A DNA stretch of 64,000 nt, taken from Escherichia coli (lineage in GTDB: Bacteria > Pseudomonadota > Gammaproteobacteria > Enterobacterales > Enterobacteriaceae). A program made the translations under genes and the position numbers. Every line of letters begins with the position of its first letter. The stretch's first letter is position 1. The stretch lies in the NCBI RefSeq assembly GCF_024298765.1, contig NZ_CP101210.1. One strand, given 5' to 3'. The notes below the pieces were generated by a model. That model had not been told where the DNA came from. It did no database searches and saw only the letters and a list, made by a program, of their open reading frames with translations. Below, piece by piece: positions 4,201 through 16,704 of the stretch.

Positions 4201-4856
4201 TCAAGACTGGCGAGTTCATTGGCTATTTCAGGTTTTTCCGGGAGGAGTAGTGCAATAAAAGGACGGCGAATTTTGGGTATTCCTGGCAGTGCGGCAATGA
4301 GTTTGTCGGCGCAACGCTGCCAGCTGCTTTCCTCTGCCAGAGAGAGATGCTTACGCAGTCGGAGATCGAATTCGTTATAGGTTTCTGAGCGATAACCATA
4401 GCCATAATCCTCGTCCTGATACTGCAATGTCACTAGCAGAGGATCACTCTCATAACATCGTGTAATAAACTGGCGTGCAATCACCACCTCAGTCGCATAT
4501 TCCAGCCCCTCTTGTTGGACGATTTCGTCGAGCAACTGTTGGCTGTCCTTTTGCGCGATACAGGCTAGCACCGCCATTGTGCGGGCCGGGACTGAGGGTT
4601 TGTGTTCGCCGATCAAGTTGATGGCCTGCGTAATGGCGGACTGCCACTCCAGTGAAAAATTTTCATAACGCCAGACAATGTTTTTTTTCTTCTCAGCTTT
4701 TTGTAGCAATTCATCACCCAGTGTCTGAATGATGCTTTCAGTGATAACAGGCACCGGTTCGCCCGGCCAATTGCGATGGCTGAGTGGTGTTTTGCCTTTT
4801 TTATATTTCAGTTCCAGTTGAGCGTTATCCGCCAGCCACGGTAATTCCTTGTCCAT
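1224..4856 (-). CDS. yehI: YehI, large DUF4132-family protein (1210 aa), paralog of MolR without the N-terminal WGR region
   Basis: 1210-aa ORF; long blocks near-identical to the upstream ORF (e.g. FDLRLRKHLSLAEES...LIALLLPEKPEIA); 9-bp gap to molR suggests an operon. Confidence 0.85.
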   Translation of the reverse strand: MDKELPWLADNAQLELKYKKGKTPLSHRNWPGEPVPVITESIIQTLGDELLQKAEKKKNIVWRYENFSLEWQSAITQAINLIGEHKPSVPARTMAVLACIAQKDSQQLLDEIVQQEGLEYATEVVIARQFITRCYESDPLLVTLQYQDEDYGYGYRSETYNEFDLRLRKHLSLAEESSWQRCADKLIAALPGIPKIRRPFIALLLPEKPEIANELASLESSRSSLHSKEWLKVIATDNTAVKKLERCWGLDVFSDREASYMSHENHFGYAACAALLREQGLAAVPRLAIYAHKEDCGSLLVQINHPQVIRTLLLVADKNKPSLQRVAKYSKNFPHATLAALAELLALKEPPARPGYPIIEDKKLPAQQKARDEYWRTLLQTLIASQPQLAERVMPWLSTQARAVLNSYLSAPPKPVIDSTDNSSLPEMLVSPPWRSKKKMTAPRLDLAPLELTPQIYWQPGEQERLAATESARYFSTESLAERMEQKSGRVVLQELGFGDDVWLFLNYILPGKLDAARNSLIVQWHYYQGRVEEILNGWNSPQAQLAEQALRSGHIEALINIWENDNFSRYRPEKSVWNLYLLAQLPREMALTFWLRIIEKKHLFAGEDYFLSILGLDALPGLLLAFSHRPKETFPLILNFGATELALPVARVWRRFAAQRDLARQWILQWPEHTASALIPLVFTKPSDNSEAALLALRLLYEQGHGELLQTVANRWQRTDVWSALEQLLKQGPMDIYPARIPKAPDFWHPAMWSRPRLITNNQPVTGDALEIIGEMLRFTQGGRFYSGLEQLKTFCQPQTLAAFAWDLFTAWQQAGAPAKDNWAFLALSLFGDESTARDLTTQILAWPQEGKSARAVSGLNILTLMNNDMALIQLHHISQRAKSRPLRDNAAEFLQVVAENRGLSQEELADRLVPTLGLDDPQALSFDFGPRQFTVRFDENLNPVIFDQQNVRQKSVPRLRADDDQLKAPEALARLKGLKKDATQVSKNLLPRLEAALRTTRRWSLADFHTLFVNHPFTRLVTQRFIWGVYPANEPRRLLNAFRVAAEGEFCNAQDEPIDLPADALIGIAHPLEMTAEMRSEFAQLFADYEIIPPLRQLTRRTVLLTPDESASNSLNRWEGKSATVGQLMGMRYKGWESGYEDAFVYDLGEYRLVLKFSPGFNHYNVDSKALMSFRSLRVYSDNKSVTFAELDVFDLSEALSAPDVIFH

Positions 4857-8800: not shown

Positions 8801-10834
8801 TTATTTCACCTGATGGCCTGGTTTAGCACCAGCATCCGGGCTTAACAGGAAGATATCTTTCCCGCCAGGACCAGCAGCCATTACCATGCCTTCGGAGATA
8901 CCAAAGCGCATTTTACGCGGTGCCAGGTTGGCCACCATAATGGTGTGACGCCCGATCAGTGCCTGCGGATCCGGGTAGGCAGAACGAATACCGGAGAAGA
9001 CATTGCGTTTTTCACCGCCGAGATCCAGTGTCAGGCGCAGCAGTTTGTCAGAACCTTCAACAAACTCTGCGTTTTCGATCAGCGCCACGCGCAGGTCAAC
9101 TTTTGCGAAGTCGTCAAAGGTGATGGTTTCCTGAATCGGATCATCTGCCAGTGGGCCAGTAACTGGCGCGGCAGCTGCTTTCACTTCTTCTTTAGACGCT
9201 TCCACCAGTGCTTCAACCTGCTTCATATCGATGCGGTTATACAGCGCTTTGAACGGATTCACTTTGTGGCCCAGCAGCGGTTGCTGGATACCATCCCAGG
9301 TCAGTTCTGTATTGAGGAATGCTTCTGCGCGCTCGGTCAGTTTCGGCAGTACCGGCTTCAGGTAAGTCATCAGCACGCGGAACAGGTTTATGCCCATTGA
9401 GCAAATTGCCTGCAGGTCGGCATCGCGGCCTTCCTGTTTTGCCACCACCCACGGAGCCTGCTCGTCGACATAGCGGTTAGCCAGATCAGCCAGCGCCATG
9501 ATTTCGCGCACTGCTTTACCAAATTCGCGGCTTTCCCACGCTTCACCAATCACTTCAGCGGCATCAGTGAAGGTTTTGTACAACTGCGGGTCAGCCAATT
9601 CGCTTGCCAGCACGCCGTCAAAACGCTTGTTGATAAAGCCCGCATTACGAGAGGCCAGGTTAACCACTTTGTTCACGATATCGGCATTCACACGCTGAAC
9701 GAAATCCTCCAGGTTGAGATCGATATCATCAATGCGCGAAGAGAGTTTCGCAGTGTAGTAGTAACGCAGGCTGTCAGCGTCAAAATGATTCAGCCAGGTG
9801 CTGGCTTTAATAAAGGTGCCGCGAGACTTGGACATCTTTGCGCCGTTCACCGTCACATAGCCATGAACAAACAGGTTGGTCGGCTTGCGGAAGTTGCTGC
9901 CTTCCAGCATGGCAGGCCAGAACAGGCTGTGGAAGTAAACAATATCTTTACCGATGAAGTGGTACAGCTCGGCGGTGGAGTCTTTCTTCCAGTATTCATC
10001 GAAGCTTACGCTGTCGCCGCGCTTGTCGCACAGATTCTTGAAAGAACCCATGTAGCCAATCGGTGCGTCCAGCCAGACGTAGAAATATTTGCCCGGCGCG
10101 TTCGGAATTTCAAAACCAAAGTATGGCGCGTCGCGGGAGATATCCCACTGTTGCAGGCCGGATTCAAACCACTCCTGCATTTTATTTGCCACCTGCTCCT
10201 GCAACGCACCGCTGCGGGTCCATGCCTGCAACATTTCGCTGAAAGAGGGCAGATCAAAGAAGAAGTGTTCAGAATCACGCATTACCGGCGTAGCGCCAGA
10301 AACCACCGATTTCGGCTCGATCAATTCAGTCGGGCTGTAGGTCGCGCCGCAGACTTCGCAGTTATCGCCGTATTGATCCGGGGATTTACATTTCGGGCAG
10401 GTGCCTTTCACAAAACGGTCCGGCAGGAACATGCCTTTTTCCGGATCGTACAGCTGAGAGATGGTGCGGTTTTTAATAAAACCGTTCTCTTTCAGGCGAG
10501 AGTAGATAAGTTCTGACAACTGGCGGTTCTCTTCGCTGTGCGTCGAGTGATAGTTGTCATAGCTGATGTTAAAGCCTGCGAAATCAGTCTGATGCTCCTG
10601 ACTCATTTCGCCAATCATCTGCTCCGGGGTGATACCAAGCTGCTGAGCTTTCAGCATGATCGGTGTACCGTGGGCATCGTCGGCGCAGATGAAGTTGACC
10701 TCGTGGCCGCGCATTCGCTGGTAACGGACCCAGACATCAGCCTGGATGTGCTCCAGCATATGGCCGAGGTGGATTGAGCCGTTAGCGTACGGCAGTGCGC
10801 ACGTCACCAGAATTTTCTTCGCGACTTGAGTCAT
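8801..10834 (-). CDS. metG: Methionine--tRNA ligase
   Basis: ORF translation contains [27 protein letters not shown] (HIGH-type motif) and a C-terminal tRNA-binding region; start trimmed to the ATG at 10834, giving 677 aa. Confidence 0.95.
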
Positions 10835-10965
10835 AGTAGGCATTACTTCTTAATAGTGAAAAGGGGTTAGATAGTACCAAATGGGAAAATGTTAAGTAAG
10901 TACTTCTCTATATTCTTCAGGTAAACTATCAGCTGATGGTTTATCTATACAAAAAAGGAGTCGGG

Positions 10966-12075: not shown

Positions 12076-12337
12076 CGCCTATTAACCATTCTGGTTATTC
12101 TTCATACACCGCAGAGATGTTACATTGATGCGGTGTATTAGTTTTTGCCGCATTAATGAACACTTATTTAATACTGCGAATATTCTGCGGACCTTCGTCC
12201 GAAACTCTACAAAGTCGATTGATCATACAGGCAATGCTTCATTATCATCCTTCGTGGCTGTGTAGTGGATGTACAGCTATAGTTTGTTATGCACTCATTC
12301 TATCCAGGCATAACCTTTACTACAGGGATAACGTTCA

Positions 12338-12619
12338 ATGAATAAGTATTGGCTGTCAGGAATTATTTTTCTTGCCTATGGATTGGCTTCTCCCGCATTC
12401 TCTTCAGAGACTGCCACATTAACGATTAATGGCAGGATCAGTCCCCCAACATGCAGTATGGCTATGGTTAATAGTCAACCACAACAGCATTGTGGTCAGT
12501 TAACGTATAATGTTGACACCCGTCATCAGGTTTCTTCGCCCGTCAAAGGTGTTACGACAGAAGTGGTTGTTGCAGGTAGCGATAGCAAACGTCGAATCGT
12601 GTTAAATCGCTACGATTAA
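12338..12619 (+). CDS. yehE: YehE, small secreted protein upstream of the yeh fimbrial operon
   Basis: 93-aa ORF with N-terminal signal peptide. Confidence 0.7.
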   Translation: MNKYWLSGIIFLAYGLASPAFSSETATLTINGRISPPTCSMAMVNSQPQQHCGQLTYNVDTRHQVSSPVKGVTTEVVVAGSDSKRRIVLNRYD

Positions 12620-12650
12620 TTTGGCAACCTGATTTTAATTGCATTTAGAA

Positions 12651-12690
12651 AGCCGAAATCATTTATATAAATGATTTCGGCTTTTTTATT
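12651..12690 (+). terminator. Intrinsic terminator after yehE
   Basis: 13-bp inverted repeat AGCCGAAATCATT/AATGATTTCGGCT followed by TTTTTT. Confidence 0.7.
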
Positions 12691-12911
12691 GATATCAACA
12701 ATACCATTTACATAAATCTACATTAATTAATAGATGCGATAAATAGTTAATACTCTTAAATATTTGTTGTATTTATATTGCATTGGTTAATTTATTTTAA
12801 ATCAATAAAACAATATGTTTACATTGCGGCAACTTTTTTGATGTGAGAAATTTGTTTCCAAGAGATACAGACTCTTAACAACCAAAAATAAATTTTATTA
12901 AGGAACATATT

Positions 12912-13454
12912 ATGAAACGTTCAATTATTGCTGCCGCTGTCTTTTCTTCTTTTTTTATGAGCGCTGGAGTATTTGCTGCAGACGTTGATACCGGAACATT
13001 AACCATTAAAGGAAATATTGCAGAATCTCCGTGTAAATTCGAAGCGGGTGGTGATTCAGTAAGTATTAATATGCCGACTGTACCAACCACTGTCTTTGAA
13101 GGTAAAGCTAAATATTCTACCTATGATGATGCAGTCGGTGTAACCAGCAGCATGTTAAAAATTAGCTGCCCGAAAGAAGTTGCTGGTGTAAAACTCTCGT
13201 TGATTACCAACGACAAAATAACCGGCAACGATAAGGCGATAGCCAGTAGCAACGATACCGTGGGTTACTATCTCTATTTAGGTGATAACAGCGATGTCCT
13301 GGATGTTTCTGCACCTTTTAATATTGAGAGTTATAAAACAGCGGAAGGTCAATATGCTATTCCGTTTAAAGCAAAATACCTGAAACTAACAGATAACTCA
13401 GTGCAATCAGGTGATGTGTTATCTTCTCTGGTTATGCGTGTGGCGCAGGATTAA
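12912..13454 (+). CDS. yehD: Fimbrial major subunit (chaperone-usher type)
   Basis: 180 aa, signal peptide, fimbrial subunit-like; first gene of yehDCBA. Confidence 0.85.
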   Translation: MKRSIIAAAVFSSFFMSAGVFAADVDTGTLTIKGNIAESPCKFEAGGDSVSINMPTVPTTVFEGKAKYSTYDDAVGVTSSMLKISCPKEVAGVKLSLITNDKITGNDKAIASSNDTVGYYLYLGDNSDVLDVSAPFNIESYKTAEGQYAIPFKAKYLKLTDNSVQSGDVLSSLVMRVAQD

Positions 13455-13488: not shown

Positions 13489-14208
13489 ATGGCCGCTATC
13501 CCATGGCGGCCTTTTAATTTAAGAGGCATTAAAATGAAAGGATTATTATCTTTACTCATTTTTTCTATGGTCCTTCCTGCACATGCCGGAATTGTTATCT
13601 ACGGGACGCGCATTATTTACCCGGCAGAAAATAAAGAAGTTATGGTGCAGTTGATGAACCAGGGAAATCGTTCTTCGCTGCTGCAGGCGTGGATTGATGA
13701 TGGCGATACGTCGTTACCACCAGAAAAAATTCAGGTTCCTTTCATGTTAACGCCACCAGTTGCAAAAATAGGGGCAAATTCCGGGCAGCAAGTAAAAATC
13801 AAAATTATGCCGAATAAACTGCCCACTAATAAAGAAAGCATTTTTTATCTGAATGTTCTGGATATTCCACCAAATAGTCCAGAACAAGAAGGTAAGAATG
13901 CACTGAAGTTTGCGATGCAAAACAGAATCAAATTGTTTTACCGGCCGGCGGGTATTGCTCCGGTAAATAAAGCGACCTTTAAAAAGTTACTGGTAAATCG
14001 CAGTGGCAATGGATTGGTGATAAAAAATGACTCAGCTAATTGGGTGACGATTTCGGATGTCAAAGCTAATAATGTCAAAGTCAATTATGAAACTATAATG
14101 ATTGCCCCCTTAGAAAGTCAGAGTGTTAATGTCAAAAGTAATAATGCAAATAACTGGTATCTGACCATTATCGATGACCACGGCAACTATATTAGTGACA
14201 AAATTTAA
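13489..14208 (+). CDS. yehC: Periplasmic fimbrial chaperone
   Basis: 239 aa, PapD-like chaperone features (signal peptide, IYGTRIIYP motif). Confidence 0.85.
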   Translation: MAAIPWRPFNLRGIKMKGLLSLLIFSMVLPAHAGIVIYGTRIIYPAENKEVMVQLMNQGNRSSLLQAWIDDGDTSLPPEKIQVPFMLTPPVAKIGANSGQQVKIKIMPNKLPTNKESIFYLNVLDIPPNSPEQEGKNALKFAMQNRIKLFYRPAGIAPVNKATFKKLLVNRSGNGLVIKNDSANWVTISDVKANNVKVNYETIMIAPLESQSVNVKSNNANNWYLTIIDDHGNYISDKI

Positions 14209-14223: not shown

Positions 14224-16704
14224 ATGTTGAGAATGACCCCACTTGCATCAGCAATCGTAGCGTTATTGCTCGGCATTGAAGCTTATGCAGCTGAAGAAAC
14301 CTTTGATACCCATTTTATGATAGGTGGAATGAAAGACCAGCAGGTTGCAAATATTCGTCTTGATGATAATCAACCCTTACCGGGGCAGTATGACATTGAT
14401 ATTTATGTCAATAAGCAATGGCGCGGGAAATATGAGATTATTGTTAAAGACAACCCGCAAGAAACATGTTTATCAAGAGAAGTTATCAAGCGGTTAGGCA
14501 TTAATAGCGATAACTTCGCCAGCGGTAAGCAATGTTTAACATTTGAGCAACTTGTTCAGGGTGGGAGCTATACCTGGGATATCGGGGTTTTTCGTCTCGA
14601 TTTCAGTGTCCCGCAGGCCTGGGTGGAAGAACTGGAAAGTGGCTATGTTCCACCGGAAAACTGGGAGCGGGGTATTAATGCGTTTTATACCTCTTATTAT
14701 GTGAGTCAGTATTACAGTGACTATAAAGCGTCGGGTAATAGTAAGAGTACATATGTACGTTTTAACAGCGGGTTAAATTTACTGGGGTGGCAACTGCATT
14801 CTGATGCCAGTTTCAGTAAAACAAATAACAATCCAGGGGTGTGGAAAAGCAATACCCTGTATCTGGAACGTGGATTTGCCCAACTTCTCGGCACGCTTCG
14901 CGTGGGTGATATGTACACATCAAGCGATATTTTTGATTCTGTTCGCTTCAGAGGTGTGCGGTTGTTTCGTGATATGCAGATGTTGCCTAACTCGAAACAA
15001 AATTTTACGCCACGGGTGCAGGGGATTGCTCAGAGTAACGCGCTGGTAACTATTGAACAGAATGGTTTTGTGGTTTATCAGAAAGAGGTTCCTCCTGGCC
15101 CGTTTGCGATTACAGATTTGCAGTTGGCCGGTGGTGGAGCAGATCTTGATGTCAGCGTGAAAGAGGCGGACGGTTCGGTAACCACCTATCTGGTGCCTTA
15201 TGCAGCGGTGCCAAATATGCTGCAACCCGGCGTGTCGAAATATGATTTTGCGGCGGGTCGTAGCCATATTGAAGGGGCGAGCAAACATAGTGATTTTGTC
15301 CAGGCGGGTTATCAGTATGGTTTTAATAACTTATTGACGTTGTATGGTGGCTCGATGGTTGCGAATAATTATTACGCGTTCACTCTGGGGACTGGCTGGA
15401 ATACACGCATTGGTGCCATTTCCGTCGATGCCACGAAGTCGCATAGTAAACAAGACAACGGCGATGTGTTTGACGGGCAAAGTTATCAAATTGCCTACAA
15501 CAAATTTGTGAGCCAAACGTCGACGCGTTTTGGTCTGGCGGCCTGGCGTTATTCGTCGCGTGATTACCGGACATTTAACGATCACGTTTGGGCAAACAAT
15601 AAAGATAATTATCGCCGTGATGAAAACGATGTCTATGACATTGCCGATTATTACCAGAATGATTTTGGTCGCAAAAATAGCTTTTCCGCCAATATGAGCC
15701 AGTCATTGCCAGAAGGTTGGGGGTCTGTGTCATTAAGTACGTTATGGCGAGATTACTGGGGGCGTAGCGGCAGTAGTAAGGATTATCAGTTGAGTTATTC
15801 CAACAACCTGCGACGGATAAGCTATACCCTCGCGGCAAGCCAGGCTTATGACGAGAATCATCATGAAGAGAAACGTTTTAATATTTTTATATCGATTCCC
15901 TTTGATTGGGGTGATGACGTTTCGACGCCTCGTCGGCAAATATATATGTCTAACTCAACGACGTTTGATGATCAGGGGTTTGCCTCAAATAATACGGGAT
16001 TATCAGGAACAGTAGGGAGTCGGGATCAGTTCAATTATGGTGTCAACCTGAGTCATCAACATCAGGGAAATGAAACGACAGCTGGGGCGAATTTGACCTG
16101 GAACGCGCCGGTGGCAACAGTGAATGGCAGTTATAGTCAGTCGAGTACTTATCGACAGGCTGGAGCCAGTGTTTCAGGGGGCATTGTCGCCTGGTCGGGT
16201 GGCGTTAATCTGGCGAACCGTCTTTCCGAAACGTTTGCTGTGATGAATGCGCCAGGAATTAAAGATGCTTATGTCAATGGGCAAAAATATCGCACAACAA
16301 ACCGTAATGGAGTGGTGGTATACGACGGAATGACACCTTATCGGGAAAATCACCTGATGCTGGATGTGTCGCAAAGCGATAGCGAAGCAGAATTACGTGG
16401 CAACCGGAAAATTGCCGCACCTTATCGCGGCGCGGTTGTACTGGTTAATTTTGATACCGATCAGCGCAAGCCCTGGTTTATAAAAGCGTTAAGAGCGGAT
16501 GGGCAACCATTAATGTTTGGTTATGAAGTCAATGATATCCATGGTCATAATATTGGCGTTGTCGGTCAGGGAAGCCAGTTATTTATTCGCACCAATGAAG
16601 TACCGCCATCGGTTAATGTGGCAATTGATAAGCAACAAGGACTTTCATGCACAATCACCTTCGGTAAAGAGATTGATGAAAGTAGAAATTATATTTGCCA
16701 GTAA
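14224..16704 (+). CDS. yehB: Outer-membrane fimbrial usher
   Basis: Usher-family protein; start set at the ATG at 14224 (RBS AGGAG at 14213-14217) rather than the upstream TTG, giving 826 aa. Confidence 0.9.
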   Translation: MLRMTPLASAIVALLLGIEAYAAEETFDTHFMIGGMKDQQVANIRLDDNQPLPGQYDIDIYVNKQWRGKYEIIVKDNPQETCLSREVIKRLGINSDNFASGKQCLTFEQLVQGGSYTWDIGVFRLDFSVPQAWVEELESGYVPPENWERGINAFYTSYYVSQYYSDYKASGNSKSTYVRFNSGLNLLGWQLHSDASFSKTNNNPGVWKSNTLYLERGFAQLLGTLRVGDMYTSSDIFDSVRFRGVRLFRDMQMLPNSKQNFTPRVQGIAQSNALVTIEQNGFVVYQKEVPPGPFAITDLQLAGGGADLDVSVKEADGSVTTYLVPYAAVPNMLQPGVSKYDFAAGRSHIEGASKHSDFVQAGYQYGFNNLLTLYGGSMVANNYYAFTLGTGWNTRIGAISVDATKSHSKQDNGDVFDGQSYQIAYNKFVSQTSTRFGLAAWRYSSRDYRTFNDHVWANNKDNYRRDENDVYDIADYYQNDFGRKNSFSANMSQSLPEGWGSVSLSTLWRDYWGRSGSSKDYQLSYSNNLRRISYTLAASQAYDENHHEEKRFNIFISIPFDWGDDVSTPRRQIYMSNSTTFDDQGFASNNTGLSGTVGSRDQFNYGVNLSHQHQGNETTAGANLTWNAPVATVNGSYSQSSTYRQAGASVSGGIVAWSGGVNLANRLSETFAVMNAPGIKDAYVNGQKYRTTNRNGVVVYDGMTPYRENHLMLDVSQSDSEAELRGNRKIAAPYRGAVVLVNFDTDQRKPWFIKALRADGQPLMFGYEVNDIHGHNIGVVGQGSQLFIRTNEVPPSVNVAIDKQQGLSCTITFGKEIDESRNYICQ

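Follow-up and report, generated by a model that had tools for sequence, protein, structure and literature searches.

The yehE-yehD intergenic region

The region analyzed here corresponds exactly to the spacer between yehE and yehD, a segment of 292 bp delimited by the stop codon of yehE, which ends at 12619, and the ATG of yehD, which begins at 12912. Positions refer to the window, that is, the whole 64,000-nt stretch of Escherichia coli DNA under analysis. A previous sequence-only reading of the window had placed the region at 12620-12911, and these limits coincide with both codons. On the basis of predicted open reading frames (ORFs) and the K-12 annotation, the gene order across the locus is metG, apbC/mrp (to 12075), yehE, yehD, yehC, yehB, yehA and rcnB/rcnA. 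E. coli strain 120899 is 99.9% identical to the window over 12300-13000, and the K-12 spacer is 98.3% identical, matching the window at 287 of 292 positions with five substitutions and no indels. H15 and H27 correspond to genomes in which yeh is deleted. The features of the locus, with the evidence used to place them, are the following:

8801-10843, minus strand: metG
12338-12619, plus strand: yehE (DUF2574 / YehE family, 93 aa), the gene upstream of the spacer (ORF; RefSeq annotation of strain 120899 and K-12)
12571-12927, no strand: K-12 promoter island 2190229_357 mapped to the window (PMC3661553 Table 1; converted via the ArcA site as anchor)
12649-12687, plus strand: yehE intrinsic terminator, a perfect 36-bp palindrome (16-bp stem, 4-nt loop) with a T6 run (fold, covariation)
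12689-12761, no strand: variable AT-rich spacer, probable bulk H-NS binding platform (alignment; H-NS binding drawn from the literature)
12762-12911, plus strand: conserved core holding the candidate yehD promoter, operator sites and presumed 5′ untranslated region (conservation)
12792-12805, no strand: FNR-like box TTATT-TTAA-ATCAA (pattern searches)
12793-12835, minus strand: ArcA-P binding site published for K-12, direct repeats with 11-bp phasing (PMC3798270, mapped by sequence)
12796-12825, plus strand: candidate yehD sigma-70 promoter, -35 TTTAAA (12796-12801), 18-bp spacer, -10 TACATT (12820-12825) (relaxed scan)
12872-12881, plus strand: conserved block CTCTTAACAA in the presumed 5′ untranslated region (alignment A3, described below)
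12900-12905, plus strand: Shine-Dalgarno AAGGAA of yehD, containing the GGA core of the EHEC CsrA site (sequence; invariant in alignment A3)
12912-13454, plus strand: yehD, major fimbrial subunit and first gene of yehDCBA (ORF and annotations)

Base composition and sequence motifs

The spacer is 76.4% A+T, or 77.7% when counted from the terminator onward, compared with an average of 49.6% for the window, and constitutes the sole 292-bp stretch above 70% A+T within the 64-kb window, approximately 4.5 SD over the mean. The extreme AT-richness previously noted is therefore genuine, and the value of roughly 80 percent attached to it is reduced to the 76.4% measured here. TpA steps occur in the spacer at 0.12 per bp, as compared with 0.047. 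The ATTTA/TTTAA motifs reported as repeated are likewise present (ATTTA five times, TTTAA twice, TAAAT six times and TTAAA twice), but not in excess of what composition dictates: the pentamers together number 15, versus 10.7 +/- 3.7 in dinucleotide-preserving shuffles of the spacer (p = 0.15). These motifs reflect composition and do not make up a repeat family, and a search for direct repeats in the spacer returned nothing beyond short two-copy chance families.

Transcription termination downstream of yehE

The palindrome downstream of yehE spans 12649-12684, starting 30 nt past the stop codon, and its T-run extends to 12687. It folds with a free energy of -24.5 kcal/mol (z = -5.7 versus shuffles). 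Among 10 distinct Escherichia sequences, 98.1% of the alignment cells are paired and four stem pairs display compensatory double changes, a level of pairing and covariation matched by 0 of 500 shuffles. Salmonella presents hairpins of wholly different stem sequence, again with a T-run, at the equivalent place. The element hence combines a stable stem-loop and a T-run 3′ of the stop codon, as expected of an intrinsic terminator, with its structure kept and its sequence not. A consensus promoter/terminator scan missed it. BLAST searches also suggested a second genomic copy of the spacer in each genome, which was discarded upon recognizing it as the palindrome matching itself on the opposite strand. 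The strong hairpin, the T-run and the covarying stem give sequence-level support to the earlier suggestion that a terminator directly after yehE argues against read-through, and to the prediction that it would block read-through into yehD.

The alternative that yehE and yehDCBA belong to a single operon, with the yehE promoter driving most yehD transcription and an intercistronic hairpin serving as attenuator or stabilizing the RNA, appears unlikely. The term "yehEDCBA operon" is used in a protein-occupancy study (bioRxiv 10.1101/2024.06.20.599902), Elpers and Hensel cloned the Yeh cluster from the yehE ATG onward (primer in PMC7098969), yehE-yehD synteny is retained in Salmonella and the spacer lacks a strong consensus promoter. 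Nevertheless, the 16-bp stem and its T6 run have the canonical form of a strong terminator, which compensatory changes have kept. Plasmid-borne yehD operons without yehE still carry the core, the yehE homologue of Enterobacteriaceae bacterium UBA5654 lies on the opposite strand, and the ArcA site and the candidate FNR box are located in the core, with none placed upstream of yehE. Furthermore, the yeh locus of EHEC yields one transcript by RT-PCR, and this unit, complemented with its endogenous promoter, encompasses the four genes Z3276-Z3279 (PMC11287998).

A conserved promoter-proximal core

To assess conservation, the spacer was aligned across 12 Escherichia sequences, which included several E. 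coli lineages, E. albertii, E. whittamii and two further Escherichia species. Mean pairwise identity of the core in Escherichia is 90.9%, reaching 94-96% at 12798-12877, and thus exceeds the 90% of the adjacent housekeeping gene apbC. Across 11 Escherichia sequences, the segment preceding the core (12689-12761) averages 65.5% pairwise identity, and no other part of the 2.5-kb region around it is as low. In addition, the allele in the window was compared with the divergent O157-like, E1V33 and E. albertii alleles. Identity to these alleles is 45-64% at the four-fold degenerate sites of yehE and yehD, 65-68% in the distal spacer and 88-91% in the core. The difference between the core and the four-fold degenerate sites denotes strong purifying selection on the core. 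Conversely, the distal spacer lies near the four-fold degenerate sites, which indicates that it drifts almost neutrally; 12689-12761 would thus appear to be evolving with little constraint while remaining AT-rich.

The core is single-copy, and 5303 of 5426 complete E. coli genomes cover at least 80% of it. Among the 5325 matching E. coli records, only 11 fall below 90% identity to the core; for the whole spacer, 1435 records drop to 80-90% identity. Elsewhere, the core is recognizable ahead of Salmonella stcA, of the yehD homologue in UBA5654 (60% YehD identity) and of yehD-like operons carried by two plasmids, one a Klebsiella IncU KPC plasmid and the other an IncFIB plasmid of E. coli. IS1 stands in place of yehE and the distal spacer in these two plasmid copies, and the core is left in place.

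An alignment of eight sequences (A3), including Salmonella, the plasmid copies and UBA5654, resolves a series of near-invariant blocks within the core: TTTTAAATCAATAAAACA (12794-12811), TTTACATTGCGG (12818-12829), CTCTTAACAA (12872-12881) and the Shine-Dalgarno TTAAGGAA. Each of these blocks differs in one or two of the eight sequences. The stc locus of Salmonella enterica has a like architecture, with apbC, a DUF2574 gene, a hairpin terminator with a T-run and a spacer preceding stcA. Its spacer is 278 bp long and 73-76% A+T, and its core is 75-80% identical to that of the window, whereas the terminator stem and the distal spacer are completely different in sequence and the subunit gene has diverged. 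The sequence-only reading missed this strongly conserved promoter-proximal half, which carries a published ArcA site and candidate FNR and CsrA sites.

Origin of the locus

The spacer had been described as belonging to a horizontally acquired operon. In terms of composition the description holds: the segment from yehE to yehA has 41.3% G+C, which is atypical against 50.4% for the window, and composition-based predictors flag the locus as foreign (PMC3661553 Table 1). In terms of distribution it does not, the locus being ancestral to Escherichia and Salmonella. The order apbC, yehE, yehD is also found in E. albertii, E. whittamii, two further Escherichia species and Salmonella, and Wurpel et al. 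consider Yeh core-associated and ancestral, and assign it to Stc in Salmonella (PMC3559732). No tRNA gene was located within 30 kb of the locus and no integrase gene was found among the neighboring genes. Of the properties that define a recent island, the locus consequently displays atypical composition, but neither a patchy distribution nor mobility genes or tRNA genes at its borders.

Horizontal movement does occur in other ways. From yehE to yehC, the O157-like allele and that of Escherichia sp. E1V33 share 99% identity, as against only 88.8% in apbC, and IS1-flanked copies are carried on plasmids.

Candidate promoter and operator sites

The best plus-strand match in a relaxed promoter scan (TTTAAA-18-TACATT) shares only 8 of 12 positions with the sigma-70 consensus, and a stricter scan found no plus-strand promoter in the spacer. 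Its hexamers and 18-bp spacing are retained in Salmonella, the plasmid copies and UBA5654. With low to moderate confidence, we propose that this element may be the yehD promoter, with a predicted start near 12832. The literature searched gave no mapped yehD start site, and PMC3798270 lists 'no TSS' for it.

The candidate promoter is overlapped by a published site for one regulator and a candidate site for a second. A K-12 ArcA-P site, AAGTTGCCGCAATGTAAACACATTGTTTTATTGATTTAAAACA, scoring 12.3 bits and supported by a ChIP-seq peak in one replicate, has been published (PMC3798270 supplementary files), and its reverse complement matches the window at 41 of the 43 positions in 12793-12835. Repeats 1 to 3 of this site (12793-12824) are conserved across genera in alignment A3. 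In sequence, the window therefore presents the 11-bp-phased direct repeats of an ArcA-P operator overlapping the candidate promoter, the binding itself being documented in the K-12 literature. The yehDCBA operon belongs to the ArcA-repressed set, with a 5.4-fold change in the arcA comparison (PMC3798270), and a separate screen also lists YehD among the targets of ArcA (PMC6134199).

According to PMC2690998, the region upstream of yehD is bound by FNR in vivo. The FNR-like box at 12792-12805, which is also conserved across genera in alignment A3, is the obvious candidate for the bound site, agreeing with TTGAT-N4-ATCAA at 8 of 10 positions in the window and at 9 of 10 in K-12 (TTGTT-TTAA-ATCAA). 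A second FNR-like box (12685-12698, one mismatch) is not conserved between strains and is thus probably a chance occurrence, and a tentative CRP site around TGTGAGAAATTTGTTT was set aside, its left half alone fitting by eye.

The variable distal spacer and H-NS silencing

In line with what is expected of an H-NS-silenced promoter region, the spacer is the most AT-rich 292-bp stretch of the window (76.4% versus 49.6%). The H-NS motif TCGATAAATT yields only 8/10 matches, at 12612, 12725-12734 (minus strand) and 12736-12745 (plus strand). The two adjacent matches fall in the non-conserved part of the spacer, and matches of this quality are what an AT-rich stretch would yield. The K-12 counterpart of the region is the promoter island 2190229_357 yehD/yehE, bound by H-NS in the Kahramanoglou and Oshima ChIP data (PMC3661553); it is positive in two of three H-NS ChIP datasets and absent from that of Grainger (PMC3661553 Table 1). 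It is one of 78 such islands, characterized by closely packed promoter-like signals, by binding of RNA polymerase and by very little output (PMC3661553). The window is in keeping with this listing of its K-12 counterpart, since a crude relaxed scan finds dense promoter-like sites in the spacer (seven, against 1.9 +/- 2.3 per 292 bp in the window, placing it in the top 3.7%); under a stricter promoter scan, the spacer showed no enrichment in promoter sites.

Published expression data indicate how this locus behaves. The yehDCBA operon has been assigned to the H-NS regulon, and its expression goes up 3.6-fold when SlyA is overproduced (PMC5797941), a work that cites Korea et al. 2010 for both the H-NS repression and the cryptic status of yeh. 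Among promoter-GFP fusions in MG1655, yehD included, strong expression was obtained from the slyA fusion only, and the yehD-GFP fusion gave no robust response to SlyA (PMC7417354). BolA overproduction raises yehD and yehC (PMC4337573). The locus lies within a static extended protein-occupancy domain, and loss of occupancy alone fails to induce yehDCBA (both from bioRxiv 10.1101/2024.06.20.599902), implying that H-NS is not the whole mechanism. Moreover, a yeh-lacZ fusion of EHEC O157 is expressed in static LB, more strongly at 28 C, as PMC7098969 relates from Low et al. 2006, and silencing is hence neither absolute nor universal. The proposal of H-NS silencing put forward from the sequence is supported, its backing being entirely published K-12 work (PMC3661553, PMC5797941, bioRxiv 10.1101/2024.06.20.599902) on a spacer that differs at 5 of 292 positions.

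Similar behavior has been described for other cryptic chaperone-usher operons. The upstream regions of yadN, elfA/ycb and sfmA are likewise AT-rich spacers listed as H-NS-bound promoter islands, and these operons are reported, as is yehDCBA, to be H-NS-repressed and SlyA-inducible. The yad promoter increases over 100-fold in a CFT073 hns mutant, and Yad responded to human serum whereas Yeh did not (both PMC13245861). The yehD core has no sequence similarity to the yadN, elfA/ycb and sfmA upstream regions, being single-copy in E. coli genomes, and within this group reports of ArcA and FNR binding were found for yehD only in the literature searched.

These data also bear on whether the spacer could be a compositional relic of a foreign island, passively silenced by H-NS and with nothing regulatory beyond its AT-richness. 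Its extreme A+T, the 41% G+C of the operon, the calls of composition-based island predictors and the near-neutral distal half are all compatible with such an origin. We nonetheless regard it as very improbable, given that the proximal 150 bp are conserved far above synonymous sites, across genera and on plasmids, that the published ArcA site and candidate FNR and CsrA sites lie in this proximal core, and that the locus is ancestral rather than recently acquired.

The presumed 5′ untranslated region

If transcription starts near 12832, yehD mRNA would have a leader of about 80 nt. Within this leader, the CTCTTAA of CTCTTAACAA is invariant in all eight A3 sequences, and the last three bases of the block differ in the IncFIB plasmid copy only. 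In EHEC 86-24, CsrA shifts the yeh 5′ untranslated region in gel assays in a manner that requires GG residues, the bound GGA-containing site lying beside the start codon (PMC11287998). By analogy, CsrA probably acts at the Shine-Dalgarno GGA of the allele in the window.

The conservation of the core could alternatively stem from a structured regulatory RNA (riboswitch or sRNA) or from a small leader peptide. In the list of an entropy-based riboswitch scan (PMC4448311), the K-12 counterpart of ~12762-12861 takes 21st place, and a 22-codon TTG ORF (12778-12846) lies inside the core. Against this, the consensus fold of the 5′ untranslated region is weak (-4.9 kcal/mol) and shows no covariation, the single-sequence fold is unremarkable (z = -0.3) and no conserved fold is predicted around CTCTTAACAA. 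Rfam searches (E up to 1) returned no family near threshold, only sub-threshold chance miRNA and snoRNA hits on the palindrome. The leader hence has neither the covarying structure nor the Rfam match of a riboswitch or structured 5′ untranslated region. The TTG ORF lacks a Shine-Dalgarno and its three E. coli substitutions are all non-synonymous. Either version of this explanation is extremely unlikely. Small ORFs of 22-29 codons were also rejected as a class, having no ribosome-binding sites and no coding-like substitution pattern.

Phase variation, whether through an invertible element of the fim kind or a Dam/Lrp switch of the pap kind, is almost certainly not a function of the spacer: phase variation is frequent in fimbrial operons, fimS and the pap switch likewise lie in regulatory spacers ahead of the gene for the major subunit in chaperone-usher operons and an imperfect 15-nt inverted repeat (12684-12698 / 12796-12810) surrounds 97 bp, but, unlike fimS and pap, the spacer has zero GATC sites and thus no GATC pairs, its left repeat arm is not conserved between strains, both arms are merely FNR-like half-palindromes, no recombinase gene is adjacent, and a query with 12699-12795 inverted gave no full-length match above 87.6%, that is, no inverted form, in 5324 genomes.

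An integrated view of yehDCBA control

Taken together, these results make it very probable that the spacer is the control region of the cryptic yehDCBA fimbrial operon, built from a terminator, a variable segment that is probably an H-NS platform, and a core that is conserved and probably holds the promoter. The present analysis itself provides the base composition, the structure and covariation of the terminator, the conservation and the mapping of the ArcA site. In the proposed mechanism, the terminator at 12649-12687 would end the yehE transcript and leave yehD relying mainly on its own promoter. The variable segment (12689-12761), the AT-rich core and the low-GC operon would jointly offer a surface for an H-NS filament that holds the promoter closed and keeps the operon nearly silent under laboratory conditions, until relieved by counter-silencers such as SlyA. 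For these proteins, as for ArcA, FNR and CsrA, binding and effects are taken from K-12 or EHEC papers. ArcA repeats 1 to 3 and the FNR-like box would overlie the promoter and tie expression to oxygen and redox state, and their covering of the promoter fits repression by occlusion under low oxygen; we infer where transcription starts, which hexamers direct it and at which box FNR binds. An unstructured 5′ untranslated region of ~80 nt would follow, with the Shine-Dalgarno GGA as the CsrA target.

The region is an ordinary one, everything essential about it having already been published for K-12 and EHEC, and the sequence-only reading was largely right, save for its claim of acquisition and for treating the spacer as uniform. 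Our analysis makes a modest addition, namely that the distal half drifts while the proximal 150 bp are under strong purifying selection across genera and travel with the plasmid copies. The locus is of small importance, as a textbook-style case of E. coli quieting an ancestral, seldom-used adhesin operon; the conserved core nevertheless shows where to mutate when seeking the signal that induces Yeh fimbriae.

The conservation of the core exceeds the known sites, notably in the 18-mer TTTTAAATCAATAAAACA and in CTCTTAACAA, which are kept, with one or two substitutions in single sequences, in E. coli, Salmonella, UBA5654 and the IS1-mobilized plasmid copies. It is conceivable, if rather doubtful, that this excess marks a site for a dedicated activator or RNA-binding factor. 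Loss of nucleoid-protein occupancy is not enough by itself to induce yeh, and a dedicated factor could therefore be the missing switch-on signal; if it exists, its action at the core could be what turns on this cryptic fimbria.

Differences from the K-12 promoter island

The K-12 yehD/yehE promoter island 2190229_357 (Panyukov and Ozoline 2013, PMC3661553), with the ArcA-P site of Park et al. 2013 (PMC3798270), is the same locus and has the terminator, the core, the ArcA repeats and the Shine-Dalgarno sequence in common with the window. One of the five substitutions that separate them, G to A at 12794, falls in ArcA repeat 3 and in the left half of the FNR-like box, and the A present in the window weakens both (the box to 8/10). 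On the minus strand, the same substitution converts TAAAAC into TAAAAT, which is closer to a -10-like hexamer than the K-12 sequence.

Comparison of the yeh locus among genomes

From yehE to yehC, the O157-like E. coli strain ERL06-2497 (L003) and Escherichia sp. E1V33 (L012), which belongs to a different species, share 98.6-99.6% identity, whereas in the adjacent apbC gene the two are just 88.8% identical and the L003 copy is that of a typical E. coli, with 99.1% identity to the window. This pattern of high identity in yeh and low identity in apbC indicates that recombination has replaced the yeh allele, one breakpoint lying in the apbC-yehE spacer. Such replacement also accounts for the 1435 E. 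coli records that fall in the 80-90% identity band for the yehE-yehD spacer.

The yeh locus is absent from some E. coli genomes, with the spacer missing in about 100 of 5426. E. coli OW1E2 carries an IS3-family element after apbC in place of yeh (L006, 1537-2747), and its homology to the window ends 36 bp into the query. Enterobacteriaceae bacterium UBA5654 (L013, 2246-3000) encodes a GC-rich yehE homologue, 38% identical, that is transcribed in the opposite direction to yehD and separated from it by a 482-bp spacer, which is AT-rich (72%) only in its yehD-proximal 260 bp.

Plasmid-borne operons

Chaperone-usher operons with a yehD-like gene were found immediately 3' of IS1 on two plasmids, the K. 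pneumoniae IncU KPC plasmid p11420-KPC (L015, 3240-8120) and the E. coli IncFIB plasmid pA320_p0 (L016, 3195-8118). Both retain the conserved promoter core and lack yehE and the distal spacer. Several other records in the plasmids collection (among matches H40-H50), ranging from 0.3 to 4.9 Mb and originating from E. coli and Salmonella, contain chromosomal metG, apbC and yeh or its Salmonella counterpart stc; these are evidently chromosomes or chromosome fragments mislabelled at source.

Sequence features of the window

The conserved core (12762-12911), which comprises the putative yehD promoter and 5' untranslated region, has matches of at least 99% identity in about 216 E. coli records. The window carries a G-to-A variant at 12794, inside the FNR-like box as well as ArcA repeat 3, at a position that is G in K-12 and even in the nearest strain, 120899. 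On the minus strand, the A creates a better -10-like element, TAAAAT, 16 bp from TAAACA.

Upstream of yehE, the segment 12238-12357 is 93-97% conserved across Escherichia. Together with the two features listed here, it delimits a region (12219-12357) that probably serves as promoter and leader of yehE.

12219-12248, promoter-like TTGATC-18-TATCAT, upstream of yehE
12254-12280, hairpin, upstream of yehE

The gap between yehD and yehC contains, at 13491-13511, the GC-rich hairpin GGCCGCTATCCCATGGCGGCC with TTTTAATTTA after it, which resembles the attenuator common 3' of major-subunit genes. The K-12 annotation places the yehC start within this hairpin, at 13489, for a product of 239 aa, and RefSeq PGAP places it at 13534, preceded by a good AAGAGG ribosome-binding site, for a product of 224 aa; the longer version is probably wrong.

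The 11-kb K-12 locus contains five FNR boxes with at most one mismatch against 0.7 expected, a count attained by none of 200 shuffles; the shuffling took no account of local AT-richness, which leaves the significance of this excess uncertain. The yehB coding region holds a box that fits the FNR consensus perfectly, TTGATGATAATCAA, at 14360-14373 of the window, and at 4762-4775 of the compared locus L002.
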